Positions 2,580 to 63,725 of a DNA stretch of 64,000 nt are shown piece after piece. The stretch comes from Haliotis rufescens (Eukaryota). The notes below the pieces were generated by a model. It saw only the letters and a program-made list of their open reading frames with translations. It had not been told where the DNA came from and did no database searches. Within the stretch, counting starts at the first letter, position 1, and every line of letters starts with the position of its first letter. The stretch is from NCBI RefSeq assembly GCF_023055435.1, contig NW_025963846.1, forward strand, positions 5,518,001 to 5,582,000. Direction: 5' to 3'. Both the position numbers and the translations under genes were made by a program.

Positions 2580-3054
2580 CTGTAAAGAGGGAATCTTTTG
2601 CGACCGTTTTATTTTGGCGAGTTTTGCGAACGAGACTCAATCGCAAAAATTAAAAACGCAAAAATAAGAATAAATAATACATACATACTTTATTCATTGC
2701 AATACGTCATCAAATGTTGAAATCATCAACCAGAACCACAAGTTACTCAATAAGTTAAAAACACAAATGAATGCAGAATGGTCACACAATACATCACAAA
2801 TGACAGTGTAAACAGATCAATTAGTGTCTTCTTATATAGTTTGTATTCAAACTCACAGTCATGACACTGAGTTGAGTCAATTATCGTATTTGATAATTGG
2901 TCGCAATCCCTTCCGGTTTGGAGAGAATCTGTCTATTGTTTGGTAATCTAGGGGTCATCTCAACACGGCAACTCGCAAAAATATCTCGTCGCAGTATTGT
3001 CTTTGGTGTGGTATTCGCAATATTTTAACGGCGCAGAAATAAAGCTGTTTACAG
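2580..3054. mobile_element. Tc1/mariner-superfamily-type MITE (475 bp) inserted in the satellite
   Basis: Ends CTGTAAA...TTTACAG are flanked by TA (2578-79 and 3055-56). Removing the element and one TA restores the satellite unit ttgggatTAtataatgg. Confidence 0.85.
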
Positions 3055-3560
3055 TATATAATGGAAGATTGTTTTGTAGTAATTATTAAACAGAAGATTG
3101 TTATGTTGGGGTTATATAATAGAAGATTGTTATGTAATGATTATTAAACAGAAGATTGTTAAGTTGGGGTTATAATATGGAATATTGTTATGTAGTAATT
3201 ATTAAACGGAAGGTTGTTATGTTGGGATTATATAATGGAAGATTGTTATGTTGTGATTATTAAACGGAAGATTGTTATGTTGGGGTTCTATAATGGAAGA
3301 TTGTTATGTAGTAATTATTAAATGGAAGGTTGTTTATGTTGGGATTATGTAATGGAAGATTGTTATGTTGGGGTTATATAATGGAAGATTGTTATGTAGT
3401 AATTATTAAACGGAAGGTTGTTTATGTTGGGGTTATATAACGGAAGATTGTTATGTTGGGATTATATGATTGAAGATTGTTATCATATAGGGATTATAGA
3501 AAGATGTTTGTGATGTTGGCATCACGTAATGAGGTTAATTTAATGGAGGATGGTTATCAT

Positions 3561-3824
3561 GTTGTTTGTTTATTGTTTAACGCCACATTCAGCAATATGC
3601 CAGCTATTTTACGATGGTCTGTAAATAATCGAGTCTGGACCAGACAAGTCAGTGGTACATAGCAAGCGCATCGATCCACGCAATTGGGATACAATGACAT
3701 CCATCAACTTAGTCAGCAAGCCTGACCACCCGATCCCGTTAATCGCCTCTTGTGACAAGCATAGTCGCCTTTTACAGCAAGCATGGGATGCTGAAGACCA
3801 ATTCTAACCCCGATCTTCACGGGC
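3561..3824 (-). mobile_element. SINE-like retroposon, family A (no tRNA head)
   Basis: Matches the copies at 15235, 36718 and 41609. Flanked by tatcatgt direct repeats. Confidence 0.85.
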
Positions 3825-6274
3825 CAACTATCATGTAATCGCAGGAAGGGGAATTTATAATGGAAGCTTGTTATGTAGGGAATATATAATGTAGGAAGTA
3901 TATAATGAAAGATTGTAATCAATCAGGGCATATATAATGGAAGATTGTTATGTTGGGAATATATTATGGAAAATTGTAATCATTCAGGGCATATATAATG
4001 GAAGATTGTTATGTAGGGAATATATAATGTAGGGCATATATAATGGAAGATTGTTATGTAGGGAATATATAATGTAGGGCATATATAATGGAAGATTGTT
4101 ATGTTGGGAATATATTATTGAAGATTGTAATCATTCAGGGCATATATAAAGAAAGATTGTTATGTAGGGAATATATAATGTAGGGCATATATAATGGAAA
4201 ATTGTTATGTTGGGAATATATTATGGAAGATTGTAATCATTCAGGGCATATATAATGGAAGATTGTTATGTAGGGAATATATAATGTAGGGCATATATAA
4301 TGTAGGGCATATATAATGGAAGATTGTTATGTTGGGAATATATTATGGAAGATTGTAGTCATTCAGGGCATATATAATGGAAGATTGTTATGTAGGGAAT
4401 ATATAATGTAGGGAGTATATAATGGAAGCTTGTTATGTAGGGAATATATAATGTAGGGAATATATAATGGAAGATTGTTATCAGGTAGGGAATATATAAT
4501 GAAAGATTGTAATCATTCAGGGCATATATAATGGAAGATTGTTAGTTTGGGAATATATAATGTAGGGAATATATAATGGAAGATTGTCATCAGGTAGGGA
4601 ATATATAATGAAAGATTGTAATCATTCAGGGCATATATAATGGAAGATGGTAATGTTGGGAATATATTATGGAAGATTGTTATCATTTAGGGAATATATA
4701 AATAAACATTGTTATGTTTGGAATATATTATGGAAGATTGTTAACATGTAAGGAATATATTATGGAAGATGGTTATCAGTTAGGGAATATATAATTGAAG
4801 ATTGGTATCATTGAGGGACTATATAATGGAAGATTGTTATCATCTAGGGAATATGAAATGGAAGATGGTTATCATTTAGGGAATATATTATTGAAGATTG
4901 TTATGTAGGGAATATATAATGGAAGATGGTTATCATTTAGGGAATATATTATTGAAGATTGTTATGTAGGGAATATGTAATGGAAGATGGTTATCATTTA
5001 GAGAATATATTATGGAAGATTGTTATGTATGATGTAGGGAATATGTAATGGAAGATGGTTATCATTTAGGGAATATATTATGGAAGATTGTTATGTATGA
5101 TGTAGGGAATATGTAATGGAAGATGGTTATCATTTAGGGAATATATTATGGAAGATTGTTATGTAGGGAATATATAATGGAATATTGTTATCATGTAGGG
5201 AATATATAATATATTATGTAATGGAGGATGTTATCGTTTAGGCATTACGTAATGGAGGATGTTGTCTTGTGTGGATTATGTAATGGAAGATGGTAATAAT
5301 GTAAGGAATACAATTTGTGTAATGTAGTACTGTTACCACGTAGGGGTTATATAAGGAATATATGATGGAATGTGGTTATTGTGTAGGCATGATATAGAAG
5401 ATTGTTATCATGAAGGGTGATGTCATGGAAGATTGTTATCAAGTATGGATTAGATCATGGACGATTGTGATGTAGTTATTATGCTATGGAAGATGTCATC
5501 ATGTAAGGATTATTTATCATGAGACAACCCAGTTGTTAGGGTGGCTGCTGATGCCTATGTAAGTCTTGGTTCCCTCCCCATATGGAACACATCTCATCAC
5601 TGCCTAGCTTCTACGGCTCGAGCCACTGTCTCGCAGGACAAACACAGAGCTTCTTCTTTCATCAGCTGTATTGAGATATTCCACTTTCTACCAATCCATG
5701 CCACGTGACAGAGGAGGACCTTGATATATTTGCATGAGTGCTGGTGCCCCTAGATATGAAATGGCATATCCCATTATGTTTGATTACTGTTAGGAGTGGG
5801 ACAGCTTAATGAGGCAAACACAGCCACAGTAATTAAATTGGAGTGATAGAGACTGCTTCTGTAACGCTTGGAATAAACCGCTTAATCCTGGGGTGAGCTG
5901 ACGAATCAGGAGTGGCCATGCTGCAGACACACCAATATACTGCTGGAATCAATAAATGATTGTTGGTTGGCATCTCTCTTACAGTTGAGAATTTGCATCC
6001 GACTGCTGAGTATTGAGTCAGGAAAGCTCAACTAGCCACAGTCAAAGGCAGCCCATGTTCCCTGGTTCTACTTGGTCCTAATTATTGGCGGAGGTGGAGA
6101 GAGGCAATTGATGCACTCACAAATGGAGCAACGCTTTTTCTCCACTATCTTCCCACAAATCCCAGGCTGTATGTCATAAGTGAATCAGGGTGACGGGATG
6201 GACTGTGGGTGGGGGTTACTGGTGGAGGTGGGATGGAGTGGGGATGGGTTTAGCTCTAGGATGCTAATTAGGTA

Positions 6275-6808: not shown

Positions 6809-8849
6809 GTTTGGGGTTGGGTACTATGTGGGTGATGGATGAAGGCTGTACATTGATCAGCTTTATCAGACTATGATTTTTATAATTGAAAACAAAATAT
6901 AGGAAATAAAAAAGATATGTTTCTGATGAGTAACACATACATGATATAATTCTATCAAGTCCTGGGCATGTTTTTCAGCTCAAGTAATTTGTTTGTGAAA
7001 TATCGACATTGTCTTGTTAACGGTCCAACTAAAGTAAGCCTTCTGCTGCTGTGCCTGCACAGCTTGCTGTGTATACAACATTAGAAAGATGGGCCAACTG
7101 AACATGTAACTGAAGGAAAATCGATATCAAAAATTGCAAAATAAGTCATTTTTGGCTGGAGGATTAATAATTTGGTCTGCCTAATAGTGTTTTAAGCACA
7201 AAAGGTTTAAAATCTGTACCTTAATGTGGAATTAATTTGAGTGTGTTTTCATTCTTCCCTGGTCTCCGACCTCCAAAATGCATCAAAACCTCAGAATTAT
7301 TGTTCTAGGATTGATTTTCATTCCTTGTACAAATTAAATATGATTATCTTCAGATGGGAATGGTGCATCTGTTTCTGTGCAGGTTGCTATTGGGAGGTTG
7401 GGCTGGAGCAGTGTGTCTTAGGGATGCTAGATATGGCAGTCTGTGTCAAATGTAAACAGTGGAATTGACTTGCTCCTTGAGGTCTGGTTATTATGTGTTA
7501 TTAGTTTACCTGTACAAAACAACAGCACTCTGAACATTTAACCACTTCCATGTACACACTAGAGATGTATCTTGCAGAAAATCACCTTTTGTGCAGAACT
7601 CGTGCAGAATGTAGCATTTTGCTGAAGCGTAATTGGTCAAATACACATTTTCCATGCAAATTAAAAACTGGTCCTCAATAAGTAAAATTTACATAAGCTT
7701 TCACAAACAACATGTGAATGAATTGTTTTTGTATTAAAGAACATTCTACTATAGATTGTTTAAAATTTTAACATTATTGAAGTGTTTATCTCAAGTGAAT
7801 CCAACTTTTGTATTGTGACTTACGCTAAATGCATGTCTTCCTGTATCATGCTCTGACTGTTAGTTCATAAAACATGGATACATTTATCAAAAAAGGCTTT
7901 TATTCATGGAAAAAAACCAACTTACTGTATGAGGTTGTAGGGCTGTGTGCAGAATTCATGAAAATTGGTTGTAGAATATATCAGAATTTACTTCAGACGT
8001 TTTATATTTTTGTTTGGCTGTAGAATTCAGCAGGGACTGGTACTTTATGGTTTAGGAACAGCTTGAGTTTTATGTCCTTTGAAAGCAAGACACAAAGGTT
8101 CAAGGATTGGAAACTTTTTCTTAAAGTGAACTACACTAGGATTATATAGATTCTCTTTGTTGATGGACTTCCACATGTAGCGAATCCATCTCCTAATAAA
8201 GTTAAATAATTTGTTTGTCGCACATAAACAGTTTTTACATCAGTCTTTGATGATGACAACATTGGAGTCAGCATCTGTGAATATTTTCACCAGTCCATTG
8301 AAATTCACGTTTTGTGCAGACTAAGTGTCTACAGTTCTGTGTTTATTTCATAATAGTTGAAGGTGCCCGCAATATATTCACTCACCGAAACATGAATACC
8401 ATACATGTTGGTTAATATAAGAAGTATTACTCATATTTAAGAGATATTAGATTGGTTCGATGCACAAACGAACATACTGTTATGTTGTGTGAACCGACGA
8501 TCATGAATTCATCACATGTGACGTCATAGACTTGAGAAGTGTCATTTGTCTCGTGCAGGATTAGCATGTAAAGTTTTGGTAATCATGTGGAGGATATTAT
8601 GATAAGAATAAAAACTCTCTGTAGTAACACTTGACTGATTGTTAATTTGTACACATTGGAAACATTTCTTCGTAATGGACATACTTCTCTATATGTTTCT
8701 ATGGTATGTGTATGTATATGTGCATGCATGCGTTACCATGCAGAACCGCTTCAAGTCCTTTAAAGCTTGGTTAACTACATTGTTCCCTGATTTGTTTTGC
8801 CAAACCATGTTTTGTGTTATGATTGTAAACAATATTATCATCTAAATAC

Positions 8850-9096
8850 GGTTGGTTGGTTGGTTGGTTTGTTGTTTAACGCCGCAGTCAGCAATATTCT
8901 AGCTATATGACGGCGGTCTGTAAATAATCGAGTCTGGACCAGACAATACAGTGATTGATATCATGAGCATCGATCCACGCAATTGGGATCGATGACATGC
9001 ATCAACCAAGTCAGCGAGCCTGACCACCCGATCCCGTTAGTCGCCTTTTACGACAAGCATTGTCACCTTTTATGGCAAGCATGGGTTTCTGAAGAC
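8850..9096 (-). mobile_element. SINE-like retroposon, family A, 5'-truncated
   Basis: (GGTT)n tail plus the conserved family A body. Confidence 0.85.
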
Positions 9097-13323: not shown

Positions 13324-15234
13324 ACGAGTGTTTGTTAAGTTTTGTTTATGTATCTCATTGCCTTTTCATATGTATCAAGTTCAAACTGTTTTGCTGTGCC
13401 TCCTTCACTGAAGACAGTAGTCTGATAGGTTGAGTGATGTTAACCTATTAGGAATACCTTTGAAAATATATCGTCTTCAATGAATCAACTGAACTTATAA
13501 TTTGTTTGGTTCCATTCAAGAACTATTTTTCTCTGGTATTGCAGGATTTAGATGTGCTTAGAAAGTTTTATGCTAATGAATCTAAAAAATTCCTTCCTTT
13601 TTGTATATTTGAGGAATTTTTCTGTAATTTAGCATCAATGGATGTATTAGAAGCACAGTATTTGGTTGCAGAAGACTATCATCTTCAGTGAAGATTGCAT
13701 CAGGATAATTGTCTATTCAAGGATCACACTTGAAAGTTCAATTGTTTAAATTTTAATTACTTAAGGTGTTGTTAATTTCAGGAGGAACACTGAGGTACTA
13801 CATGCACTGATTCTACCAGTTTGTTTTCTATGTACAGTCATTTCTGAAGTAACTGAGCATGCAGGGATGACTGGGACAATGTGAAATTTTAGGAAGAAAT
13901 AAGGCGTGATGGCTTTTTTTCCAAATCTGCCAATGTACTTAAATAATGAATACTTACCCGTACATTGTACTATCAATATTCATATATTCATCACGTCAGG
14001 TTTACGATCTAAGTCCTAACATTATCTGTGGCCCATAGGTGTTTACTGGTCACATCAGTTCTGTTTGTGAAGCCTACATCGAGTCACACTGTTATGATTC
14101 ACTAACGCTTGATTCGGAGAAAAAACTAGGTCATACTTATGATGTTATCAAGGGGAGGTAACTCTGAATAGTCAGTTTGTCTGTTCCAGCTATCCAAGCA
14201 GTAAGTATGGTTTTACGCCGCTTTTAGAAATATTCCAGCAATATCACGGCGGGGGACAGCAGAAATGGGCTATCCAAGAAGTAGAAGTAGGATTTTCATA
14301 CGGTAATGCTGAATGACCACGTATGCTCTCTTACTTCAAAATAGACCTGTACTTAATGCATAAAGTATTTCACAAGTGTTATTGAAGTGTACTTAATGGA
14401 TTCAGTAAATTAATCAAGCTGCGTCTTTAGATCCGTTCAAACAGCTTTATGAAATAATGAGACATTACTTACTTACTTGTGAAGTGATTTGTTTGCTTTG
14501 ACTTGAAAATGTTTCCAAATCTGCAAAATATGTGCAATGTAGGCAATAGCATCTTGTGAAGATACTTGACCTGTTTCCTCTGTTAATCCTGTTGTTCAAG
14601 AACAAGATCTGAGTGCCATCTTAGTGAACATCTGTTTTCTGTAAACACAAGATAAAGAAATAGGATGGGAAAGGTGGGATGGAATCTTTGCTTGCCTGTC
14701 TGAACACCTAAGTTTCCTTTCAGTTGTTGTTGTCCCCAGCATTAATATGAGTTTGATTAAGATATCAGTATTGTGAAGCCTCTTTTGAAGGGTGAATCAG
14801 GTAACTTGTGTAGGCGTGGCATGGACGTGGTCACTTTGTATCCCAAGACAACAGTAGCTGGTGCCTTGTCTTTTACCATTATTTTCATTATGTGGTCTAA
14901 CAAAAGATCCTTTCAAAATAGATTCACATTTTTATCCCCAAATATTAACATAAAAGATTCTCAGCGTTTACCTTAACATTTTTGTTAAGATATTTTTATA
15001 CCAGCAGACCAGAATCAGTAGCCAGAAAATGTCACTAGCACGTCCAGATAGATCATTATACAAGGCTTGTATTACAAGCTATATTAAGCATTTTCTATGC
15101 CTAGTTCGCCGTTAAAACAGCCACATGTCCAAGAGTCTCGTTAAATTGTATTTGGTCTTTTAATCTTAACGGATAATAGTCCACAGTATGTTACGGAAGA
15201 GAGAAGTTTGGGTTAATTACAATGTTTGGCTGGG

Positions 15235-15516
15235 TTGGTTGGTTGGTTTGTTTGTTTTGTTTGTTGTTTAATGCCGCACTCAGCAATACTCCAGCTATAT
15301 GACGGCGGTCTGTAAATAATCGAGTCTGGTCCAGACAATCCAGTGATTGACATCACGAGCATCGATCCACGCAATCGGGATCGAAGACATGCATTAACCA
15401 AATCAGCGAGCTTGACCACCCGATCCCGTTAGTCGCCTTTTACGACAAACATAGTCGCCTTTCACGGCAAGCATGGGTTGCTGAAGACCTGTTCTACCCC
15501 GGAATCTTCACGGGTC
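15235..15516 (-). mobile_element. Full-length SINE-like retroposon, family A (282 bp)
   Basis: 13-bp TSD atgtttggctggg (15222-34 and 15517-29). The element begins GACCCGTGAAGAT and ends in an (AACC/AAAC)n tail. Confidence 0.92.
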
Positions 15517-16070
15517 ATGTTTGGCTGGGACTCTGTACACTTCGTGGTCCTGGACACAGCTTATATGTCCAAGCTGTTCTGTGTTGTCCTTGATGCTGAG
15601 CAGTGTTTACCTACAGGTGTTTACTGTGATGGTATCCCAGGTCTTGTCAGAGTAGATGGCTAGCCTGCACTGGTACTTAGGTTGAGTCACAACTGTTAGT
15701 TCTAGCACTGCTGACACAATCAAATGAGTTGCTGATACAGATCCGATGCATGATAATCAATATCATTATTTGCATGTTATTGTCAAGAACACTATATTAA
15801 TTTACCTGCGTATGTGTGATTTCCTTGTTTAACGAGTTATTTTGTACCTGATTCAGACAAGTTACCATATTTGACATATTTAGTGACATATTTACCATGG
15901 GCAGTTTTTTAGTGATGGAATAGTTTGACAAGAGAGAGATCGTTCATTTCTGATTTATATTTTTGTCATGAGAAGTGGATCATTAACAATTAGGAAGGAC
16001 ATGCTGGAAAGGGACTGATATCTGCTTTGTGGAAGCTACTGCTGATTTTGCAATTGGGAATTGACAATGC

Positions 16071-20949: not shown

Positions 20950-20978
20950 CTGGACCAGAGGTCAGGTTACAGTGTTGT

Positions 20979-21219
20979 TGGTTTGTTGTTTAACAACGCA
21001 CTCAGCAATATTCCAGCTGTATGACAGCGGTCTGTAAATAATCGAGTCTGGACCAGACAATCAAGTGATTGATATCATAAGCATCGATCCATGCAATTGT
21101 GATCGATGACATGCATCAACCAAGTCAGCGAGCCTGACCATCTGATCACGTTAGGCACCTCATACGACAAGCATAGCCGCCTTTTAAGGCAAGCATGGGT
21201 TGCTGAAGACCCATTCTAC
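20979..21219 (-). mobile_element. SINE-like retroposon, family A, 5'-truncated
   Basis: Family A body. TSD tacagtgttgt/tacagtattgt within a satellite unit. Confidence 0.85.
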
Positions 21220-25400: not shown

Positions 25401-27944
25401 AACATCTACCTATTGTTATGTATATATATCATGCTCATACCTAGTTTGTACATCATTTGCTTGATAACGGTGTTAGAATCTACACCGAAACGTCGCCCAA
25501 TTGTAATAAAGAAGTTGCTCATCCATAACAATTTTGTCTTAGTCAAAAAAGAAAAGTCTTGGTTCTCAGGCACCGCCCACATCAACATAAAGTTTGCTGC
25601 ATGTTTCGTTTTTATTTCAATTTTTTAAAAATATATCAAAATAATCCTTAAATATTCCAAGTCCATCTTGTATTCCAGTATTTTACTCACCATGGAATGC
25701 ATTTATGAAGGGAGGCCCTTTCCCAGGTTGATTGTATACAATTATTTTATTGATTACACAACTGTTTATTGGTAACATACTAGTTTGGACAACACCCACC
25801 CCCAACCCCCCCAAAAAAACACACCCGCCCTCACTATATTTTCAAAATCCATTGCCTGAGAACCAATTCTTTTATTTTTTTAAGCCTTATGCAAACACAA
25901 ACATATTCATAGGAGATGACGTTTGAAGTATGGTCAAAGGGACACAACTCATGTATGGATTCAGTGAAGTCCTGTTAGTGCAGAGAGTGGAGTTCAAAGT
26001 TTAACTAATTACTGGCTTAATGAATCAACCCCTCAATTATCCTGCATAACATATCGTGGCTTTGTTGAAATATATTTACGGCCCTCCACTTACAATTTTG
26101 TTTAGAATGTTGACAATCAGGTGTTTTCAGGAATATGCATATTTATTTCATGATAGAAAACCCCCAAAGAAATACACTTGATTACATATTTTCTCAAGAT
26201 ACCGAACCATTTGGATTGTATCGCAATATATATTGTTGAAGGTACACCGTACACTGATTATACAGTGCAGACCTAATGATGACATCACAGAGCTCCAGAA
26301 AAAAACTTTTGGTGTTGTGGGTATTTTACCCATGCATTTTAAAATCATTGGGTATCAGTAAATCTATCTGGGTATTCAAATTTCTGTTACCCACCAGATT
26401 TTACACGTGGGTATTTAAGTTAAATATTTAAAAACACTATTCATCTAGTCCCTGCAAACTGGTGTCGTGTGGGTTCGAGAGCTTTATAGGACTCAAAAAT
26501 ACCACGATACTTCCACAAGAAAGTGTGATGGCAAATGATCGTGATGTAACTGTCATTGTGGAGTTTGGCAAGGTTGACTGAATGCCCGTTTATAATTTCA
26601 AAATAAGTTGCTAATTTGCTAATTGAATACGCAGGGTTACTTTACAATATTTTGATGATACGCACAAGTTTTATTTTTGTAGCTTATCTGTAATGTTCGT
26701 TGCGTATTTGATACACTTGGATTTTATTTTACTGCATATTTCTGCATTTCTGATGTGTATTTTACGCAGATATGCAGCTTATCTGGAGCTCTGTATCATT
26801 TCCCAAACAAAGCTATGATGCAGATAGGTCAACACTGTTATGGACCGGAGACACAAAGTATTATATAATACACTGGGTAACCGAGGAGGAATGAATCACT
26901 GGTTCTGAGGAATGTCTCTTTATATTCCCACTACTTGTCTACAATTGATTGTCTGTAGTATAACACCGCATTCAGCACTATTCCAGCCACATGATGGCTG
27001 TCTGTAAATAATAGTCTCGAGTTTCATGAACATCGATCTACCCAATTGGGATACGATGACATGCATCAACCAAGTCAGGGAGACTGACCACCCGATCCCG
27101 TTTGTCGCCTCTTATGACCCAGATCTACATGGGGGACTCAATCTCATTAAAATCAGATCTTAGTTCTCGCTACCACTAAACAAAGATCTGAGGACATCCC
27201 ATTACGGGTGACGTCTGAATACCCTGTGTTGAAGTTTTCCAGGTTGCATGAAGAGAAATCACATTCCGACTGTCACTTTCATGATCTGGTAAGCGACGCT
27301 CTGACTGGTCGGATGAAAGGTCGTTCTGATGTGACCCCTAATGGGATGTCTTCAGATCTTTTTTGAGCAGTAGCGAGAACTAAGGTCTGATTTTAATGAG
27401 ATTGATGGGTGACTTGTCTTGACACTGAGGTTTCTGGATTAATAGCGTTCAATTCTTGGACATCAACACATTGAAACTTCTTTAGCGTGTTGAAGTTACA
27501 TGCATGTATTCAGGTCAAACTGTCATCTTGAAAGTATACTGATCCCTCAATATATTATTATTTTTGTGTACGGAGAAACGTACATTCCAATGAAGAACTG
27601 ATCGCGGAAACACAGCACATGGCCCAAATATCCGGAAACCATTGTTGAGTTTGAATCCAACAGAGCTGTAGGCATCTATAAATGTTACTGTGTCGTCTTC
27701 CTTGCTGAGGATGGTGACTGTGGTTGCTGTAGCGTTGACGTTGCCATCAATGTTGTGATGTCGAACAGGTGTCGCGCTGAAAGATATAGGTATTAATCAA
27801 TTTCTTCAAGGTGAGGTGAGGTGAGGTGAAATGTGCGTGCATGTGTGTGTGTGTGCATGCGTGTCAATTTCTTCAAGGTGAGGTGAGGTGAGGTGAGGTG
27901 AAATGTGTGTGCGTGTCAATTTCTTCAAGGTGAGGTGAGGTGAA

Positions 27945-36126: not shown

Positions 36127-36717
36127 TCACCACCACAGTAGAACTTGGCTTCCTGAAACGCATCAGACACACATTCAACCATGAAATCTTAAATTTATAG
36201 TGTTAATTTGCAAAAGGTTACGATAAAAGTAAGTGAAAACAGACTCCATGTCCCTTATGGGCTACCGTAATCATCAGTATTCGCAGAATAAAGCTGTTCA
36301 TTGAAATACCGCCCCCTCCCTACCCCCACCCCCAGCCCCACACACCACTTGACCTATGTCACCCTCGATTATCCAGTCTATTATATATCCACACTAATAA
36401 AATATCCTGGACCCATCAAAGCGGCGTAAAACCCTACTCACACACCACGAGGGCAGCAAATTGCTATACGGATCCGCGAAATACCAAAAAAGAGAAAACT
36501 GAAAAGAAAAACGAACAGGGGCACAAGAAGAAGGTGGGCAGTACTTTCTATGATAACCTTAATCATCAGAGCGTTATTAAATTTAATGTTTCGTGTAAGG
36601 TGCCACAAACTGATCTAACATTTAAAAATACAGAAGTATATGTCAATGGTTTCACACATATGATAAACACTGCGGGGCAGAAGAAAGTATATACCCATGT
36701 TCGATGGTGGCTAAAAT

Positions 36718-36990
36718 GGTTGGTTGGTTGGTAGGTTGTTTAACGCCGCACTCAACAATATTCCAGCTATATGACGGCGGTCTGTAAATAATCGAGTCTG
36801 GACCAGACAATCCAGTGATTAACATCTACATGCGCATCGATCCACGCAATTGGGACCAATGACATGCATCAACCAAGTCAGCGAGCCTGACCACCCGATC
36901 CCGTTAGTCGCCTTTTACGACAAGCATAGTCACCTTTTACGGCGATCATGGGTTGCTGAAGACCTATTCCACCCCGGATCTTCACGGGTC
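36718..36990 (-). mobile_element. Full-length family A retroposon
   Basis: Starts GACCCGTGAAGATCCGGGG on the - strand. Complete body and tail. Confidence 0.9.
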
Positions 36991-37308
36991 TTATTCAAAG
37001 GTGATACATTTGATACGGGTATCATAGTTTCGGAGACTGTTTTCAGCATCGAAACGTTATGGTAACAATTGTAATTTTGGGGTCAAATCCAATTTTCAAA
37101 TGTACACTTTGCTTTACCGGATAGTTTACATATTACATATTCTTTATTTGCTTTATTGCCTCCAATGGTTGAAACTTACATGTTATGGACTATGCAAGAG
37201 CTTTACGTAATACACAGGATAAATAGGCATTACATAAAAAGCTTTTTCGTCACATGTCCATCATATTACATGTTATATCGGACAGCCTCAGTGGTTTAGT
37301 GAGTTGAG

Positions 37309-37520
37309 TTGGTTTGTTGTTTTACGCCGCACTCAGCAATATTGCAGCCATGTGGTCTGTAAATAATCAAGTCTGTACCAGACAATCCAGTGATTGATTT
37401 CATGAGCATCAATCCAAGCAATTGGGATCGATGACGTGTATCAACCAAGTCAGCGAACCTGACCACCGTATCCCGTTAGCCGCCTCTTACGACAAGCATA
37501 GTCGCCATTTACGGCAAGTA
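37309..37520 (-). mobile_element. Family A retroposon, 5'-truncated, inserted in the family C SINE head
   Basis: TSD ttagtgagttgag / ttagtgggttgag (37296-308 and 37521-33). Confidence 0.88.
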
Positions 37521-37611
37521 TTAGTGGGTTGAGACTGCCCGGGAAGCTGAAGGTCCGGGGTTCGATCCCCGACCGCGTCATACTAAAGGACGTTAAAAGA
37601 TGGTATTTGTT

Positions 37612-41553: not shown

Positions 41554-44426
<2,873 letters not shown>

Positions 44427-45679
44427 TGCTACCCCAGTTGGCACTCAAATGTTCCCTTGAAGGGACGACCGAATAAAAAAAGCGTAGAAACAAATGTTTT
44501 CTTTTCGTCAGTGTATAGTATTTAGTTTATATGCTTTTATAATTATTGGAAGAGTGAGTGAGTGAGTGAGTTGTGTTTAACGCCGCTATCACGGAGTGTC
44601 ATCGGGAGGAATGCCCGAAGTGATGCAGGTCTTAGACAACATGAAACACTGAATATTGCATTTTCATCTTCATGAAATATGAAATAGATTATGTGCTAAG
44701 TTTTCATCGTTATGCTCATTGAAGCCACCATTTATAACTGACGGAACACATATCATGTGCATATGTTAATAGAACCCTCAGTGGAATCCTCCAACAGATG
44801 ACAATTTCTGTCACTTAATAAAACACTATTTCTGGTGCAACTATGGTTCTCGTTAATCCGATTTCACTGAGAACGCATATGTCTGGATTAACCGGTTTCC
44901 ATTGTATCATATTGTTTCTTCTGATGCATTCAATTTTATTTCAACACCAATTCCTATTTCCTATTTCGACCTCCCGCCAACTGACAAAGTGGAAGGCAAA
45001 TTTGAAAGAAGAAAAATGATATTTTTGTTCGAAGCAAACGACAACGTAGTGTGTCCTCTTAAGGAAATGATGATTTCCCGTCCAGTCACAGGTCAGTCCT
45101 GACCAGTCCTTGACCCCCCTTCTCATCCTGATACAAGTGTGGTGTTCATTCATCGTAATAAATATCAGAAACAAACCAAAAGTCCTTCAGACAGAAAAGT
45201 ATAGGTATTTATTCTACAAGGTGTGCAGCCACACACCCATATAACATAATGAAAACAACGCAACATGGTAATCACAAGGCTGATGGATAAATTAATACAT
45301 TTTGTCAAAATCAAAACCTTTATTAGAATAATATGTTGTGTGATATTATGGAGCAGGATCGGATTTGCAGCTGACAAGAACCGACTGGGAGAGGGGGATG
45401 TGATTCGTCAGCCAGGATTTGTTACGGGTTCGGTCGTGTGGTTTAAGTAAAGGCTTTATTTGACAGCAATGTCGATGCGAATTTAATATTTCAGTTTAGA
45501 TTTTAGCTAGACTTCATGTTGAATTATTAGAGGGTCAAATTGCATGGGGAACACAACGCTGCAAGGTCCGAAATTATGTCTTTGAAACACACTACTATTG
45601 AGGTACAGTGGTTATTTTGGAATAATACTTTCAGGCCGACGGTAGATATAATAATACCATAGGGTCGACACTGTTGTTT

Positions 45680-48600
45680 CTGGAACACCATACTGGAGAG
45701 GTGACACTGGTGTCTTTGGAACACAATACTGGAGAGGTGACGCTGGTGTCTTTGGAACACAATACTAGAGAGGTCACACTGGTGTCTTTGGAACACAATA
45801 CTAGAGAGGTGACACTGGTGTCTTTGGAACACAATACTGGAGAGGTGACACTGGTGTCTTTGGAACACACCCAAAAAGTCAATACTGGAGGTGACACTGG
45901 TGTCTTTGGAACACAATACTGGAGAGGTGACACTGGTGTCTTTGGAATACAATACTAGAGAGGTGACACTGGTGTCTTTGGAACACAATACTAGAGAGGT
46001 GACACTGGTGTCTTTGGAACACACCCAAAAAGTCAATACTGGAGGTGACACTGGTGTCTTTGGAACACACCCAAAAAGTCAATACTGGAGGTGACACTGG
46101 TGTCTTTGGAATACAATACTGGAGAGGTGACACTGGTGTCTTTGGAACACAATACTAGAGAGGTGACACTGGTGTCTTTGGAACACACCCAAAAAGTCAA
46201 TACTGGAGGTGACACTGGTGTCTTTGGAACACAACGCTGGAGAGGTGACACTGGTGTCTTTGGAACACAATGCTGGAGAGGTGACACTGGTGTCTTTGGA
46301 ACACAATGCTGGAGAGGTGACACTGGTGTCTTTGGAATACAATACTAGAGAGGTGACACTGGTGTCTTTGGAACACAATGCTGGAGAGGTGACACTGGTG
46401 TCTTTGGAATACAATACTGGAGAGGTGACACTGGTGTCTTTGGAATACAATACTAGAGAGGTGACACTGGTGTCTTTGGAATACAATACTGGAGAGGTGA
46501 CACTGGTGTCTTTGGAATACAATACTAGAGAGGTCACACTGGTGTCTTTGGAATACAATACTGGAGAGGTGACACTGGTGTCTTTGGAACACAATACTGG
46601 AGAGGTGACACTGGTGTCTTTGGAATACAATACTAGAGAGGTGACACTGGTGTCTTTGGAACACAATACTAGAGAGGTCACACTGGTGTCTTTGGAATAC
46701 AATACTGGAGAGGTGACACTGGTGTCTTTGGAACACAATGCTGGAGAGGTGACACTGGTGTCTTTGGAATACAATACTAGAGAGGTGACACTGGTGTCTT
46801 TGGAACACAATGCTGGAGAGGTGACACTGGTGTCTTTGGAATACAATACTGGAGAGGTGACACTGGTGTCTTTGGAACACAATACTAGAGAGGTCACACT
46901 GGTGTCTTTGGAATACAATACTAGAGAGGTCACACTGGTGTCTTTGGAATACAATACTGGAGAGGTGACACTGGTGTCTTTGGAACACACCCACAAAGTC
47001 AATACTGGAGAGGTGACACTAGCGTTTTTGGAACACAATACTAGAGAAGTGACACTGGTGTCTTTGGAATACAATACTAGAGAGGTGACACTGGTGTCTT
47101 TGGAATACAATACTAGAGAAGTGACACTGGTGTCTTTGGAATACAATAATAGAGAGGTGACACTGGTGTCTTTGGAATACAATACTGGAGAAGTGACACT
47201 GGTGTCTTTGGAACACAATACTAGAGAGGTGACACTGGTGTCTTTGGAACACAATACTAGAGAGGTGACACTGGTGTCTTTGGAACACACCCAAAAAGTC
47301 AATACTGGAGGTGACACTGGTGTCTTTGGAACACAACGCTGGAGAGGTGACACTGGTGTCTTTGGAACACAATGCTGGAGAGGTGACACTGGTGTCTTTG
47401 GAACACAATGCTGGAGAGGTGACACTGGTGTCTTTGGAATACAATACTAGAGAGGTGACACTGGTGTCTTTGGAACACAATGCTGGAGAGGTGACACTGG
47501 TGTCTTTGGAATACAATACTGGAGAGGTGACACTGGTGTCTTTGGAATACAATACTAGAGAGGTGACACTGGTGTCTTTGGAATACAATACTGGAGAGGT
47601 GACACTGGTGTCTTTGGAATACAATACTAGAGAGGTCACACTGGTGTCTTTGGAATACAATACTGGAGAGGTGACACTGGTGTCTTTGGAACACAATACT
47701 GGAGAGGTGACACTGGTGTCTTTGGAATACAATACTAGAGAGGTGACACTGGTGTCTTTGGAACACAATACTAGAGAGGTCACACTGGTGTCTTTGGAAT
47801 ACAATACTGGAGAGGTGACACTGGTGTCTTTGGAACACAATGCTGGAGAGGTGACACTGGTGTCTTTGGAATACAATACTAGAGAGGTGACACTGGTGTC
47901 TTTGGAACACAATGCTGGAGAGGTGACACTGGTGTCTTTGGAATACAATACTAGAGAGGTGACACTGGTGTCTTTGGAACACAATACTAGAGAGGTCACA
48001 CTGGTGTCTTTGGAATACAATACTAGAGAGGTCACACTGGTGTCTTTGGAATACAATACTGGAGAGGTGACACTGGTGTCTTTGGAACACACCCACAAAG
48101 TCAATACTGGAGAGGTGACACTAGCGTTTTTGGAACACAATACTAGAGAAGTGACACTGGTGTCTTTGGAATACAATACTAGAGAGGTGACACTGGTGTC
48201 TTTGGAATACAATACTAGAGAAGTGACACTGGTGTCTTTGGAATACAATAATAGAGAGGTGACACTGGTGTCTTTGGAATACAATACTGGAGAAGTGACA
48301 CTGGTGTCTTTGGAACACAATACTAGAGAGGTGACACTGGTGTCTTTGAAACACAATACTAGAGAGGTGACACTGGTGTCTTTGGAACACACCCAAAAAG
48401 TCAATACTGGAGGTGACACTGGTGTCTTTGGAACACAATGCTGGAGAGGTGACACTGGTGTCTTTGGAACACAATACTAGAGAGGTGACACTGGTGTCTT
48501 TGGAAGACAATACTAGAGAAGTGACACTGGTGTCTTTGGAACACACCCAAAAAGTCAATACTGGAGGTGACACTGGTGTCTTTGGAACACAATGCTGGAG

Positions 48601-49018
48601 AGGTGACACTGGTGTCTTTGGAACACAATACTGGAGAGGTGACACTGGTGTCTTTGGAACACAATACTGGAGAGGTGACACTGGTGTCTTTGGAACACAC
48701 CCACAAAGTCAATACTGGAGAGGTGACACTAGCGTTTTTGGAACACACCCAAAAAGTCAATACTGGAGGTGACACTGGTGTCTTTGGAACACAATGCTGG
48801 AGAGGTGACACTGGTGTGTTTGGAACACAATACTAGAGAAGTGACACTGGTGTCTTTGAAACACAATACTAGAGAGGTGACACTGGTGTCTTTGGAATAC
48901 AATACTGGAGAGGTGACACTGGTGTCTTTGGAACACAATACTGGAGAGGTGACACTGGTGTCTTTGGAACACACCCACAAAGTCAATACTGGAGAGGTGA
49001 CACTAGCGTTTTTGGAAC
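45680..49018. repeat. Tandem satellite, 36-bp unit with a ~1.1-kb higher-order duplication
   Basis: ggaacacaatactggagaggtgacactggtgtcttt repeated about 90 times. Variant patterns repeat at a 1102-bp offset (46209 vs 47311). Confidence 0.95.
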
Positions 49019-49091
49019 AATATTTTACGACTGCACATCATTAGTATTATTGTTATCATTATATTGTTGCATTATTATTAATGTAAGAGTG

Positions 49092-49300
49092 TGTGAGTGA
49101 GTGAGTTGGGTTTAACGCCGCTTTCACCAGTATTCCAGCTATATTACGGCGTGTCAGCTTAATGTGGGAGGAAAGCCCGAAGTGATGCAGGTCTCAGACG
49201 TTTACCACCTCAGTGAAACCCAAGAGCACGGGTATGGTGCTGACAAACCTAGAAACATAATCGGGGCGAACCGGGATTCGAACCCACAATCATAGGTTTC
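49092..49300 (-). mobile_element. Family B SINE, 5'-truncated
   Basis: Reverse complement of the family B B box, body and tail. A smaller tail remnant lies at ~44553-44640. Confidence 0.85.
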
Positions 49301-52061: not shown

Positions 52062-52337
52062 GGGTGGAACGGGTGGCCCAGTCATCTAAGGCGCCGCGAT
52101 TCGCTGTGCAGAGTTGCGTCTCTGTGGCATGGCAGAACCCAATGATTGTGGGTTCGAATCCCGGTTCGCCCCGATTATGTTTCTAGGTTTGTCAGCACCA
52201 TACCCGTGCTCGTGGGTTTCATCGAAATGGTAAACGTCTGAGACCTGCATCACTTCGGGCCTTCCTCCAACATTAAGCTGACACGCCGTGATATAACTGG
52301 AATACTGTTACAAGCGGCATTAAACACAACTCACACA
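52062..52337 (+). mobile_element. Family B SINE, full length, just downstream of the tubulin copy 3 poly(A) signal
   Basis: A and B boxes, tail, and TSD ctcacatagtcacg/ctcacacagtcacg. Confidence 0.88.
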
Positions 52338-52442
52338 CTCACACAGTCACGATCGAAAATCAAACAAAAGAGGAAACATTTTAAACTTTTTTTATTCGGT
52401 CGTTCCATCAAGGGAACATTTGAGTGTCAGTTTGGGGTAGCA

Positions 52443-54658
<2,216 letters not shown>

Positions 54659-54755
54659 GATTGTAGATGATTGTAGTTGTTGTATGTAGATCTCACGTGG
54701 ACTGCAAGTTGTCTGGTGTGAGAAAGACTGACGTAGAGAGGAGGTGCCCGGACGC

Positions 54756-54817
54756 TTATATACACGTAGTGGTCAGTCTGTTGTCAAGGACGCTGATCCC
54801 CAGTAACCGTTGCTAAG
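54756..54817 (-). promoter_or_regulatory. Alpha-tubulin copy 3 promoter: X-box-like elements and TATA box
   Basis: Reverse strand reads CTTAGCAACGGTTACTGGGGAT..GTCCTTGACAAC..TATATAA. Confidence 0.65.
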
Positions 54818-55199
54818 CTCATTACGACGGCGGCGTCTGGTGTTTAAGGGTGAAGGTTCACTTGAGTCAGGATTATCATTGCGTGCTTAATCATCTAAAT
54901 GCTGGCAGCCTAATTAACAGAAGGTACATTGAACGCTTAATTAATGATTGTGTACTTGTAGCATCGTATTGTTCCTTGCTACAACTTGTGAGCTATTTTA
55001 TTTACTTAATGCGTAATGAGACTTCTATGTTTCTACAGCCAGGGCTCATATCCAAAGTTTCTTTTTAATGTTTTTTTCCAACTTGATGTAACGTTTAACC
55101 TATTATGATACATTTTATTTCCCGAAACAAAACTAAATGTTACTGTTAACCGATACGAACTGGTTTCTTTTCCAAGACCCAGCTTGATGCGATGTTTCA

Positions 55200-56328
55200 T
55201 TGGTTGGAAATGATTTTCTTTCCAAGGCCGAACGAAATGCGCACCTAATGTTTCACTGATATGAAATACATAACTTTCTTAGACCCAGACAGAAGCACTG
55301 TTTCACTAATATGAAATATATTACTTTTTCAGACCCAGATAGGTTCACTGTTTCACTAATATGGAAGAGATTACTTTCTTAGACCCAGATAGGTGCACTG
55401 TTTCACTAATATGAAATAGATTACTTTCTAAGACCCAGATAGGTACAATGTTTCACTAATATGAATTAGATTACTTTCTAAGACCCATATAGGTACAATG
55501 TTTCACGAATATGAAATAGATTACTTTCTTAGACCCAGATAGGTGCACTGTTTCACTAATATGAAATATATTACTTTCTTAGACCCAGATAGGTGCACTT
55601 TTTCACTAATATGAAATTGATTACTTTCTAAGACCCATATAGGTGCAATGTTTCACGAATATGAAACATATTACTTTCTTAGACCCAGATAGGTGCAATG
55701 TTTCACTAATATTAAAGAGATTACTTTCTAAGACCCAGATAGGATCACTGTTTCACTAATATGAAATATATTACTTTCTTAGAACCAGATAGGTGCACTT
55801 TTTCACTAATATGAAATTGATTACTTTCTAAGACCCAGATAGGTACAATGTTTCACGAATATGAAATAGATTACTTTCTTAGACACAGATAGGGGCACTG
55901 TTTCACTAATATGAAATAGATTACTTTCTTAGACCCAGATAGGTGCACTTTTTCAATAATATGAAATTGATTACTTTCTAAGACCAAGATAGGTACAATG
56001 TTTCACGAATATGAAATAGATTACTTTCTTAGACCCAGATAGGTGCACTATTTCACTAATATGAAATAGATTACTTTCTAAGACCCAGATAGGTACAATG
56101 TTTCACTGATATGAAATATATTACTTTCTAAGACCCAGATAGGTACCATGTTTCACTAATATGAAATAGATTACTTTCTAAGACCCATATAGGTTCAATG
56201 TTTCACTAATATGAAAGAGATTACTTTCTAAGACCAAGATAGATGCAATGTTTCACTGATATGAAATAGATTACTTTCTAAGACCCAGATAGGTGCAATG
56301 TTTCACTAATATGAAAGAGTTTACTTCC
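55200..56328. repeat. Tandem satellite, 50-bp unit, upstream of tubulin copy 3
   Basis: agacccagataggtgcactgtttcactaatatgaaatagattactttcta repeated about 22 times. Confidence 0.94.
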
Positions 56329-57499
56329 AACAGGAGATGTATCGCTTTACTGATACCAACGATTTATCAGTTAATGGAGCATGAACCGTCTGACGTCTAG
56401 AAAATGTACATTTGTGAAATATGCAAATCATGTTTCAACGTATATTTATCATAAATAACGGCAGATATGCGCTTGATAAACATGTGTCCACACCAATGCA
56501 TGTTAAACTGATAAAGAATCCTCTACACTTTACTGAGGTATTGCTCTCTGCAAGGCGTTTCCGACATCCGGTGACCTTTTACTGTTGCAAATTATCGCAT
56601 AAGAAGTTGCACCATTTCATCAACGTATTATGTACAGACTTGACAATCAACGAAAACCATTGTGTGTTTATAGTGCTTCATTTTTGTGAACTCAAGAGTG
56701 CACCGTGTCCACCATTTCGGAATAATGAGAGAGTTTCCTCCCCCTAAGCGACTGTTTATTCATTGTAATGTGAAATAGGTGAAGGGTTCGAGGCTATCTA
56801 CAATGAAAAGCCAAGTCAAAAAGCTAATACGCAAAAGCGTTGCACAACACAGCAGTGCACATGAAGTGATGACAAACTAAGTCACGTGCAGTACGTCATC
56901 GGGTGTCTGCCGGTAGAAGGCTTCATCTGAAGCTCTGTCAAACAACGTTCTTCATAAACAAAGGTATAACTTATATCTGTAATATTCAATGCAGGTCAAG
57001 ATGATAACGTTCCTTAATAAGTGATTTAGACAATTTAACGTAATAATGTGTACACTCAATCTGGACAGATGTATCAAATTGGATATATTATTAGTCGATA
57101 ACGTTTTACGCAGTTTACACATATTTGGCCAGATATAACAATTCTTTGGGGTATAAAGAAGTCGTTGTTGGGGAAGAGCTTCACATCTGAAAAGATAGTG
57201 AAACAGATGCGGTCTTCTCTCAGAAACCCTCGCCATCGGCCGGTTTCAATGGGTAAATGATGATTCGAAGTGCGAAAATGTAAAATCGGTAAGTAGATAG
57301 TTTTGGGAAGTAATTATAGAACATTTTCGAATTTTGGTAATTCTTCAAAGTGTTGGTAATTTAAACGTTTTGAACTTGATGAGATACATTCTCGCTACTG
57401 TTGTATAAATTGGTCTTTAAGAATTCTCTCGACCTTTGAAACCAGCCAGTAAGTTGAGCAAATAGATGGGTTTATTTGATTGCAAATAGATTGTATCGA

Positions 57500-57845: not shown

Positions 57846-58622
57846 TGTTACTCGAACCCGGTTGTTTCACTTGGCGAGTAAGTGAGTTTAAATTTTACAT
57901 CACATGGGCAATTTTCAGCCATATTGTGACGAACATGACAAGCAGATGTTTCTAAAACCCAATATGAAATGCAACATCTGTTAACAGCGTATCATTCTCA
58001 ATACGCCAAAGTCCAATGACTCGGTGCACCATATCCAATGGCGTTAATATCAGCTTAATCCTAAGAATGCAGTGATGAATTTGGAATACTTAGGGGCGCG
58101 GAAGGGTGCGGTATTGATGGGTGGAGGAGGTCCAAATAATTGGGGAATCCACTAAGTATACATCTAAAGAATACGTTCCTGAATAACTGTTTTTTACAGA
58201 ATTTTTGAATCAATATGCGAAGGCCAGACACGCTTGTGATTACAGCTATACACGGTTACATGAAATAACTCGTATTTGGTTGAAGGTTTTACAAGTATTG
58301 AATCCTCTTTCATCATCAGTTTACATAGTTGCACAAAAAGGCTGTGTGTAGGGACACAAATTAATTGTTATTTGCCAAAGGATCCACTCAGGGTGGTATA
58401 AACACAGAAGGAGCTTAAATGCGAATAATCAGGTAATAAAAAACTATCTATTTCAGCCTTTTTCAAAATGACGAAAATCCTTTATTTTCCTTGTGGTCTT
58501 CGGATACTCACGAAAGTAAGTAAAATCAATACGATGCAAAAACAAAAACAAAACATTTCTTTCTGAGCTTTTTTATTTGGTCGTTCCATTCGGGGAACAT
58601 TTGAGTGTCAACTGGGGTAGCA

Positions 58623-61158
<2,536 letters not shown>

Positions 61159-61245
61159 GATTGTTGTAGGTAGATGTGGATCTCACGTGGACTGCAAGTT
61201 GTCTGGTGTGAGAAAATCTGATGTAGAGAACAGGTCCCTGGACAC

Positions 61246-61307
61246 TTATATACACGTCGTGTTCAACCGGTTGTCAAGGACGCTGATCCCCAGTAACCGT
61301 TGCTAAG
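61246..61307 (-). promoter_or_regulatory. Alpha-tubulin copy 4 promoter: X-box-like elements and TATA box
   Basis: Same block as copy 3. Confidence 0.65.
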
Positions 61308-61629
61308 CTCATTACGACGGCGGCGTCTGGGGTTTCAGGGTGAAGGTTCACTTGAGCCGGGATTATCATTGTGTTCTTAATAATCTAAATGCTGACAGCC
61401 TAATTAACAGAAGGTACATTGACAACTTAATTAATGATTGTTTACTTGTAGCATCGTATTGTTTCTCTTTTATTTACTTAATGCATAATGAAACTTCCTT
61501 TTTTTCTACAGCCTGGGCTAATATCTAAAGTTTCTTTTTTTCCAACTTGATGCCACGTTTAACCTATATTTTATGATATATCTTATTTCCCGAGAAAAAA
61601 TAAATGTAACCGATATGAACTCGTTTCTT

Positions 61630-63725
61630 TTCTAATACCCAGCTTGATGCGATGTTTCATTGGTAGGAAATAATTTACTTTTCCAAGGCGGAACGAGATG
61701 CAATGTTTCGCTGTTATCGAAAGTTCACTTTCCCAAAACCGAAACAGATTCAATGTTTCACAGGAGGAGATAGATTATATTCCTAGACCCTTCGAGTGTA
61801 TGACTGATGTGAAATAGTTTAACTATTTAAGACCCGGGAGCATTTAATGGTTTACTGATATGCAGTAGATTACTTACTAAGACCCAGATAGATGCAATGT
61901 TTCACTCATATGAAAGTGAATAGTTTCTAAGACCAAGATAGATGCAATATTTCAGTAATATGAAATATATTACTTTCCAAGACCCGGATAGATGCAATGT
62001 TTCACTAGTATGAAATAGATAACTTTATGAGACCCAGGCGGATGCAATGTTTCACTTATATGAAAGTGAATAGTTTCTAAGACCAAGATAGATGCAATAT
62101 TTCACTAATATGAAATAGATTACTTTCCAAGACCCAGATAGATGCAATGTTTCACTAGTATGAAATAGATATATTTATAAGACCCAGGCATATGCAATGT
62201 TTTACTAATATGAAAGAGAATACTTTCTAAGACCCAGATAGGAGCAATGTTTCACTGATATGAAATAGATTACTTTCTTTAGACCCAGATAGGAGCAATG
62301 TTTCACTAATATGAAATAGATTACTTTCTAAAACCCAGACAGATGCAATGTTTCACTAATATGAAATAGATAACTTACTAAGACCCAGGCAGATGCAAGG
62401 TTTCACTAATATCAAATAGATTACTTTCTAAGTCCCAGATAGATGCAATGTTTCACTAATATGAAACAGACAACTTACTAAGACCCAGGCAGATGCAAGG
62501 TTTCGCTAATATGAAACAGATTACTTTCTAAGACCCAGGCAGATGCAATGTTTCACTAATATGAAACAGATTACTTTCTAAGACCAAGATGATGCACTGT
62601 TTCACTAGTATGAAAGGGAATACCTTCTAAGACCCAGATGGATGCAAAGTTTCAATGATATGAAAAAGATTACTTTCTAAGACCCAGATAGATGCAATGT
62701 TTCACTAATATGAAATAGATTACTTTATAAGACCCAGATAGATGCACTGTTTCACTAATATGAAGCAGATTACTTTCTAAGTCCCAGATAGATGCAATGT
62801 TTCACTAATATGAAATACATAACTTACTAAGACCCAGGCAGATGCTATGTTTCACTAATATGAAATAGATCACTTTCTAAGACCAAGATGATGCACTGTT
62901 TAACTAATATGAAAGAGAATACCATCTAAGACCCAGGTTGATGCAAAGTTTCACTGATATGAAATAGATTACTTTCTAAGAACCAGATAGGAGCATTGTT
63001 TCACTAATATGAAATAGATTACTTTCTAAGACCCAGATAGATGCAATGTTTCACTATCATGAAATAGATTACTTTCTAAGACCCAGATAGATGCAATGGT
63101 TCACTAATATGAAAGAGAATACTCTCAAAGTCCCAATCAGATGCAATGTTTCACTCATATGAAATAGATAACTTACTAAGACCCAGGGAGAAGCAAGGTT
63201 TCACTAATATGAAACAGATTACTTTCTAAGACCCAGATAGATGCACTGTTTCACTAATATGAAATACATAACTTACTAAGACCCAGGCAGATGCTATGTT
63301 TCACTAATATAAAACAGATTACTTTCTAAGACCCAGATGATGCACTGTTTCACTAATATGAAAGAGAATACCTTGTAAGACCCAGGTGGATGCAAAGTTT
63401 CACTGATATGAAATAGATTACTTTCTAAGACACAGATAGATGCAATGTTTCACTAATATGAAAAAGATTACTTTCTAAGACCCAGATAGATGCACCGTTT
63501 CACTAATATGAAGCAGATTACTTTCTAAGACCCAGATAGGTGTAATACTTCACTAATATGAAATAGAATCCTTTCTAAGACCCATTTAGGTGCAATACTT
63601 CACTAATATGAAATAGATTACTTTCTAAGACCCAGATAGGAGCAATGTTTCACTAATATGAAATAGATTACTTTCTAAGACCCAGATAGATGCAATGTTT
63701 CACTAATATGAAAGAGTTTACTTCC
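61630..63725. repeat. Tandem satellite, 50-bp unit, upstream of tubulin copy 4 (same family as 55200-56328)
   Basis: agacccagatagatgcaatgtttcactaatatgaaatagattactttcta repeated about 40 times. Confidence 0.94.

Follow-up and report, generated by a model that had tools for sequence, protein, structure and literature searches.

The head of a ~280-bp SINE of Haliotis rufescens, its first 70–90 bases, folds into a two-domain structured RNA that is absent from Rfam and recurs, close to identical in sequence, in animal retroelements and in unrelated RNA viruses. The SINE family itself is very likely known, and the novelty lies in the RNA fold and its spread. By comparison with viral xrRNAs, we propose that the fold acts as an xrRNA-like 5′–3′ exonuclease block, by which host read-through RNA would be trimmed to the first base of the element (base 1); we consider the chances of this proposal to be about even.

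The window, the whole 64-kb stretch of DNA analysed, contains nine copies of the element by BLAST, eight on the minus strand and one on the plus strand, in agreement with an earlier sequence-only reading. That reading had rightly taken the copies, with their target-site duplications (TSDs) and tail, as retroposed, and had assigned a common start to four of them (15516, 36990, 41609 and 3825, the last as GGCCCGT). These same four begin at base 1, and the other five are 5′-truncated (Table 1). Exact TSDs of at least 8 nt flank five of the nine copies, one of these TSDs being ambiguous as it resembles the tail, and two further tail-only BLAST matches belong to another repeat. The element also lacks a recognisable tRNA head, as had been claimed: no exact A or B box is present in the window SINE, which has a single one-mismatch match to each, and ARAGORN and Rfam (the latter at the gathering score) returned no tRNA and no Rfam match over the window. 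Exact B boxes are present in six other repeats of the window. By these features the element is not a tRNA-derived (Pol III) SINE.

Table 1 Copies of the SINE in the window and structural features of the copy starting at 15516.
Feature	Position	Strand	Remark
Full-length SINE copy, very likely LP-SINE type, double-hairpin subfamily	15235..15516	-	13-nt TSD abutting base 1
5′ target-site duplication of 15516 copy, 13 nt	15517..15529	-	
3′ target-site duplication of 15516 copy, 13 nt	15222..15234	-	
5′ H-type pseudoknot of 15516 copy, from base 1	15483..15516	-	covariation
S1 of 15516 copy	15514-15511 with 15501-15498	-	covariation
L1 of 15516 copy (U)	15510	-	
S2 of 15516 copy	15509-15503 with 15489-15483	-	covariation
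3′ domain of 15516 copy	15425..15477	-	P3 = 15477-15473 with 15429-15425, one mismatch
Degenerate hairpin inside P3 of 15516 copy	15468-15454	-	
Conserved GUCG-UAARAGG-CGAC-UAA hairpin of 15516 copy	15446-15432	-	T-loop-like loop
SINE body of 15516 copy	15309..15424	-	
3′ stem-loop of 15516 copy	15273..15308	-	as in host I-group LINE 3′ ends
(AAAC/AACC)n tail of 15516 copy	15235..15269	-	
Full-length copy	36715..36990	-	starts at base 1
Copy from base 1	41609..41870	+	11-nt internal deletion within pseudoknot
Older full-length copy	3560..3825	-	starts at base 1 as GGCCCGT
5′-truncated copy, missing ~10 nt of head	16060..~16335	-	12-nt TSD
5′-truncated copy	8845..9096	-	
5′-truncated copy	20970..21219	-	
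5′-truncated copy	37300..37521	-	
5′-truncated and internally deleted copy	26945..27118	-	

Beyond the window, we sampled 60 evenly spaced 10-kb stretches (600 kb) of the 1.33-Gb host genome. The sample yielded 121 clustered matches, eight of which lay at edges and were dropped, and the 3′ end is present in 87 of the remaining 113; extrapolation gives ~2–2.7 × 10^5 matches per genome, with fragments and tail-only matches counted. Among the 87 3′-complete copies, 20 start at base 1, 16 at bases 2–4 and three at bases 5–10, and the remaining 48 are scattered truncations. The sequence upstream of the SINE has nothing in common between copies, the top base at positions −1 to −6 reaching at most 21 of 45. 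TSDs were checked in the best 30 genome matches, a set chosen by the head and hence biased to full-length copies: a tail could be located in 27 and an exact TSD of at least 8 nt in 16, of which 13 abut or overlap base 1 and three stop one base short. Three runs of small-RNA data, and of small RNA only, placed 33 reads on the element, none piling up at base 1. Host searches with the patterns of other head families returned only this SINE (60 of 60 among the matches listed).

The SINE is very likely the abalone LP-SINE already described. LP-SINEs (Hdi_LP, Hmi_LP, Lsa_2 and Sgl_LP; also the pectinoid MESC heads) are known from abalones, oysters and a periwinkle (Matetovici et al. 2016, PMC4758252) and carry a 70-bp head common to Nimb-17_LMi, I-3_DR and RTE-9_CPB, which the same paper proposed as a promoter while calling for testing; SINE–Nimb partnerships are also on record (PMC11481361). 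Like LP-SINEs, the element lacks a tRNA-derived head and begins with ~70 nt homologous to the 5′ UTR of Nimb/I-group LINEs, the published heads being homologous to RTE LINE 5′ UTRs as well (PMC4758252); it also has variable TSDs, a short-tandem-repeat tail and a LINE-related 3′ end. The Hdi_LP consensus of 255 fits the single-hairpin form here (240 plus tail), a comparison by length alone, and the scallop head in Fig. S2 of PMC4758252 contains the same hairpin, and its pseudoknot looks the same by eye. In its accessible text, that account presents the head as a promoter only and gives no RNA fold, viral occurrence or upstream HDV-like ribozyme.

The fold was compared across 24 family representatives (L446 was left out of 25), with anchors set by eye. 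All share a register in which S1 (four bases) is followed by a U, a 7-bp S2, the S1 partner, a loop, the S2 partner, and P3 enclosing a hairpin, giving the helix order S1-S2-S1′-S2′-P3-P4-P4′-P3′. The loop before the S2 partner (L3) measures 8–73 nt and ends in AGAAU(A/U/G); that of the 15516 copy ends in AGAACA instead of AGAAU(A/U). The S1 5′ strand pairs fully with the loop in 21 of the 24 families, S2 is paired in 144 of 168 cells, and G-C/C-G swaps occur at both ends of S1 across families. A MAFFT alignment of 21 representatives pairs 90.5% of S1 cells and 89.1% of S2 cells, against 29–50% in slid controls, and reveals two-sided changes in all seven S2 pairs and two of the four S1 pairs, that is, in 9 of 11 pseudoknot pairs. 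Because the families are related, the anchors were set by eye and most families were found through the hairpin, shuffle statistics overstate this support. The nested-fold energy of the 15516 window copy is unremarkable (z −0.40).

This comparison upholds a conserved pseudoknotted RNA beginning at the 5′ boundary, as the sequence-only reading had it, though with other pseudoknot partners. Its 7-bp stem GAAGAUC/GGUCUUC is S2, and its GUCG/CGAC hairpin holds across families. The GGGU/ACCC pseudoknot fails, being fully paired in 6 of 24 families (67% of cells, with 460 of 5000 shuffles as high), and so does the CCCGU/ACGGG closing stem, which is paired in 2 of 24 families (50% of cells); instead, the 5′ CCCG has the loop G-run as its partner, and CCCAU the strand after UAA. 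Tandem duplication of the hairpin, also claimed, is seen but is specific to a subfamily, with ~30 double and 14 single forms among 44 SINE copies.

The hairpin stem exhibits no covariation in A1, and its sole candidate variant lies in the viral contig L717 (model E ~0.01), where the pseudoknot is intact, a hairpin is inserted and the final hairpin is altered yet still paired (L717:1143-1225). In the hairpin loop, U1, a purine at position 4 and A5 are constant in 116 of 116 LINE heads, and positions 2–3 vary; these heads were chosen by ORF1 or the pseudoknot and not by the loop, and many are young relatives. An invariant U1, R4 and A5 with variable positions 2–3 is the T-loop pattern.

No Rfam model matched any of the heads at 16 loci, with E up to 10 or 5, and none of the hammerhead, twister, pistol, hatchet or other Rfam ribozyme models matched at the heads. 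The head does not follow the nested double pseudoknot of HDV-like ribozymes (P1-P2-P3-L3-P3′-P1′-P1.1-P4-J4/2-P2′ from G1), nor does it keep their conserved G at +1, the first base being G, A, G and T in four families. We found no description of the fold in the literature, including the main text of a 2026 ribozyme preprint.

The exact 17-base hairpin pattern occurs at no fewer than 120 metagenome loci, in repeats of about ten families and in viral contigs, and the head also fronts SINEs of other animals and I-group LINEs of the host. Seven distinct contigs of RNA-virus type carry the full fold in sense after the last long ORF, 4–99 nt past the stop codon in the five viral contigs measured. 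Pfam recognises an RdRP or a capsid in six of the seven: a toti-like RdRP (L426), a tombus-like RdRP with a noda-type capsid (L428), a second tombus-like RdRP (L431), a tetra-like capsid (L235/L430), an S-domain capsid in a contig with tandem copies of the fold (L687), and an RdRP_2 in the contig with the variant hairpin (L717). The seventh, L423, has one unannotated long ORF and tandem copies of the fold; the viral ORF of L423/L213 has no Pfam or PDB match. L235 and L430 are the same virus from two samples, differing by two mismatches in 251 nt, and assembly from two samples argues against a chimera; a search for relatives of the tetra-like capsid found the same virus alone. The fold is also present in a 212-kb DNA-virus contig (L424), between two same-strand genes (2952-3040), where the module forms a GC-rich island in AT-rich surroundings; the ATG of an ORF spanning 950 codons or more lies ~150 nt further on.

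Bacterial occurrence was considered and rejected. Prokaryote genomes gave 25 matches, and the full-fold ones were treated as eukaryotic contamination: two of them, in high-GC prokaryote contigs, are inserts that resemble SINEs, carry repeat tails and sit where the contig ends, and most of the remaining prokaryote matches are hairpin-only chance matches. Short eukaryote-type SINEs with this head, one with a TSD, lie at the ends of bacterial MAG contigs at L443:90-290 and L455:1-240 as chimeric joins. Looser viral patterns returned mostly chance matches among the matches listed for two patterns, and the fold was not matched in a phage collection. In a separate arrangement, that of metagenome family E (L104, L132 and L141), a tRNA-like head follows immediately after this head, in a fusion like the one known from scallop MESC SINEs (PMC4758252).

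With the ORF1 downstream of one head (L454) as query, we obtained 107 host matches. The head sits 350–500 nt before ORF1 in 19 of the 20 host stretches examined, and ORF2 encodes APE-RT-RNase H in all three LINEs scanned, which confirms the suspected origin of the head in LINE 5′ UTRs. The LINE 3′ stem-loop matches the SINE tail, and from this resemblance the SINE 3′ stem-loop is likely the recognition site of the reverse transcriptase (RT).

LINE 5′ ends fall at two places. Three of 19 LINEs start at the head, and 16 start ~57 nt earlier, at G1 of an upstream module that matches models of HDV-like ribozymes over its full length (E 0.0033, under the gathering score). The TSD abuts the ribozyme G1 in seven of eight LINE copies examined, and it abuts the head in the two head-first LINEs examined. 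In the host, 887 sites match a pattern taken from within the head of the ribozyme-bearing family; the first 70 loci listed comprise 67 distinct ribozyme-bearing copies, of which 65 start at or beside the ribozyme G1, two start inside the ribozyme and none at the head. Thus, behind a ribozyme, the head on its own brings about neither cleavage nor RT arrest nor transcription initiation at base 1. In four ribozyme-less families, by comparison, the element starts six bases before the conserved U, whatever the first base (G in 27 of 45, A in 20 of 27, G in 18 of 20 and T in 25 of 26 copies); family E shows no clear start.

A boundary that is set from the structure, independent of the base, and lost behind a ribozyme-made 5′-OH is what an exonuclease stall predicts. 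RNA cut by a ribozyme bears a 5′-OH end that Xrn1 does not attack, which would explain why no copy starts at the head behind the HDV-like ribozyme. The proposed course of events begins with a SINE that has no promoter of its own and would be copied inside host transcripts. Decapping, or an intron or endonuclease cut, would leave a 5′-monophosphate end upstream; Xrn1 or Xrn2 would then degrade the RNA as far as the base of the pseudoknot and halt there, with or without the help of a bound factor, and LINE ORF2p would prime on the SINE tail. The invariant hairpin may make a T-loop contact that closes the protective fold, or may serve a further function, for instance binding the ribosome or a factor. 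Release from host transcripts, as suggested from the sequence at the outset, is probably right in this respect; the two mechanisms offered, a ribozyme or RT recruitment, are wrong or unsupported.

The position after the stop codon, the tandem copies, the pseudoknot and the halt at the base of the first helix all match published descriptions of xrRNAs (PMC8374639, PMC12397905). Functionally, an xrRNA is an RNA that stops Xrn1 at a defined site, with the 5′ end encircled by a 15–16-nt ring. These RNAs often occur in tandem in 3′ UTRs; as of 2021 they had been characterised only in viruses, with cellular ones expected (PMC8374639), and whether xrRNAs exist in cells, a point that paper leaves open, is the one the head addresses. 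The closest likeness is to class 3 xrRNAs (Tombusviridae/Solemoviridae, ST9a), which are small, pseudoknotted and found in 3′ UTRs or intergenic regions (PMC12397905, PMC8374639), and which halt Xrn1 at the base of the first helix, with a T-loop as anchor. Both they and the head thus have a 5′ boundary at the first-helix base and a T-loop-like element (PMC12397905). Class 3 xrRNAs, however, consist of P1 and P2 with a J1/2 bulge, a T-loop in the apical loop and an AGY motif (PMC12397905), whereas in the head S1 and S2 have no bulge, the T-loop-like loop lies downstream of both and caps a separate hairpin, L3 ends in AGAAU(A/U), and the hosts include retroelements. Compared by eye, the fold has neither an L2B T-loop nor a J1/2 bulge nor AGY in J1/3. 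Flavivirus class 1/2 xrRNAs likewise occur as tandem copies in viral 3′ UTRs (PMC8374639, PMC12397905), but the head is without their three-way junction and double pseudoknot. With a pseudoknot at the 5′ edge of the putative protected RNA, our claim is that the fold would work like an xrRNA, not that it belongs among them, as it matches no known xrRNA class. The fuller version, in which the fold is a fourth structural class of xrRNA, exchanged among RNA viruses, a DNA virus and non-LTR retroelements, that sets LINE and SINE 5′ ends by stalling Xrn1/Xrn2, is tentative, and we lean slightly against it.

If the block is real, the fold would provide a third way to define a retroposon 5′ end, besides promoters and ribozymes, and an animal genome would hold an xrRNA in hundreds of thousands of copies. 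The exact 5′ ends of promoter-less SINEs would be explained if Xrn were blocked, and each copy would be a possible decay barrier in host RNAs. The module, ~90 nt long, comes with natural compensatory variants and a built-in control, namely LINEs with and without the upstream ribozyme. Two observations weigh against a block alone. About 890 ribozyme-bearing LINE copies keep an intact head, which it leaves unexplained; and frequent conversion of 5′-OH RNA to a substrate predicts some copies starting at the head, of which none was seen. A second job of the hairpin in ribosome or factor binding would explain why these LINEs keep it, and its near-invariant sequence from animals to viruses points to a protein or ribosome partner. 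From these sequence patterns a second role is likely, probably the binding of a conserved host factor or the ribosome, and it could be the main one.

Carried to its end, that possibility becomes the strongest alternative, which we judge unlikely overall: the head would be a translation or ribosome-binding element, 3′-CITE-like in viruses, aiding initiation on uncapped LINE RNA and docking ribosomes for ORF2p capture by SINEs, and ribozyme-less elements would owe their 5′ ends to an overlapping internal promoter, of the kind that Pr77 provides in L1Tc. Retention of the head where an upstream HDV-like ribozyme has already fixed the 5′ end and the near-invariance of the hairpin both speak for it, as do the location in viral 3′ UTRs and before a long ORF in the DNA virus. 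The head also replaces tRNA heads or is fused to them (PMC4758252; family E), and a dual promoter and RNA function has a precedent (PMC3383444). A promoter acting at base 1, however, predicts head starts in the ribozyme-bearing family, where none of the 67 copies has one; nor does it sit well with a first base that differs between families (U in one, G or A in others), with an L3 that varies from 8 to 73 nt without shifting the start, or with a T6 run in one family's head that would stop Pol III. Ribosome binding, if correct, would make the fold a new cap-independent translation element of both LINEs and viruses.

A new self-cleaving ribozyme cutting just 5′ of base 1, the first of the mechanisms proposed from the sequence, is improbable. 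Exact starts with abutting TSDs in 13 of 16 resolvable young SINE copies and both head-first LINEs fit such a cut, as does a compact pseudoknotted fold with invariant bases whose CUAA run recalls the HDV J4/2 strand, and ribozymes are known in linear RNA viruses (PMC13725137). The known HDV-like ribozymes of the L1TcRz/Pr77 type resemble the head as short 5′ modules that fix the 5′ end of differing LINEs and their non-autonomous derivatives (PMC3383444), but the head has another pairing order, and in this genome a true HDV-like module adjoins it separately and is detected by Rfam models that miss the head. Self-cleavage predicts head starts in the ribozyme-bearing LINEs, and none of the 67 copies has one; a cut at base 1 would sever the upstream ribozyme, which all 67 keep entirely or for the most part. 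The supposed cut falls at a variable base, and in a viral 3′ UTR it would cost the genome its 3′ end.

It is highly improbable that LINE ORF2p binds the fold, or that RT stops there, and so fixes the 5′ junction at integration. The R2 protein does bind a pseudoknotted RNA of its own element (PMC12222951), and the head accompanies I-group LINEs and the SINEs associated with them. Arrest of RT at base 1 would nevertheless leave head starts behind the ribozyme, and in all 67 copies an RT from the same LINE group has read past the head, so the RT-recruiting head first suggested is unsupported; moreover, RNA viruses encode no ORF2p yet have the same fold and sequence, and the head is reported from both Nimb and RTE LINEs (PMC4758252). 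A DNA-level LINE promoter with incidental pairings, which is the published LP proposal and agrees with the 5′-end position and homology to LINE 5′ UTRs (PMC4758252), is scarcely credible given compensatory changes in 9 of 11 pseudoknot pairs and the presence of the head in RNA viruses, which have no DNA stage.

Several features of neighbouring repeats were observed along the way. At 37521-37600 of the window, a truncated copy and a B-box tRNA-type SINE on the opposite strand face each other head to head, and the 3′ ends of another repeat family at 49110-49151 and 52284-52326 carry the same LINE-type tail stem-loop. Self-comparison of the window delineates long, highly repeated blocks at 811-2594, 3849-5517, 45548-49022, 52364-56604 and 58497-64000. 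Elsewhere in the genome, L566:757-813 and 950 core-pattern matches represent a young family of I-group LINEs that begin with a compact ribozyme of HDV-like type, almost devoid of P4; copies of this type are densely clustered and inserted into one another (e.g. G000:C445 near 31–32 Mb). The 3′ UTR that follows ORF2 in L566 and its relatives is long and contains G/C-rich, complementary-looking blocks common across families, possibly another conserved structure.
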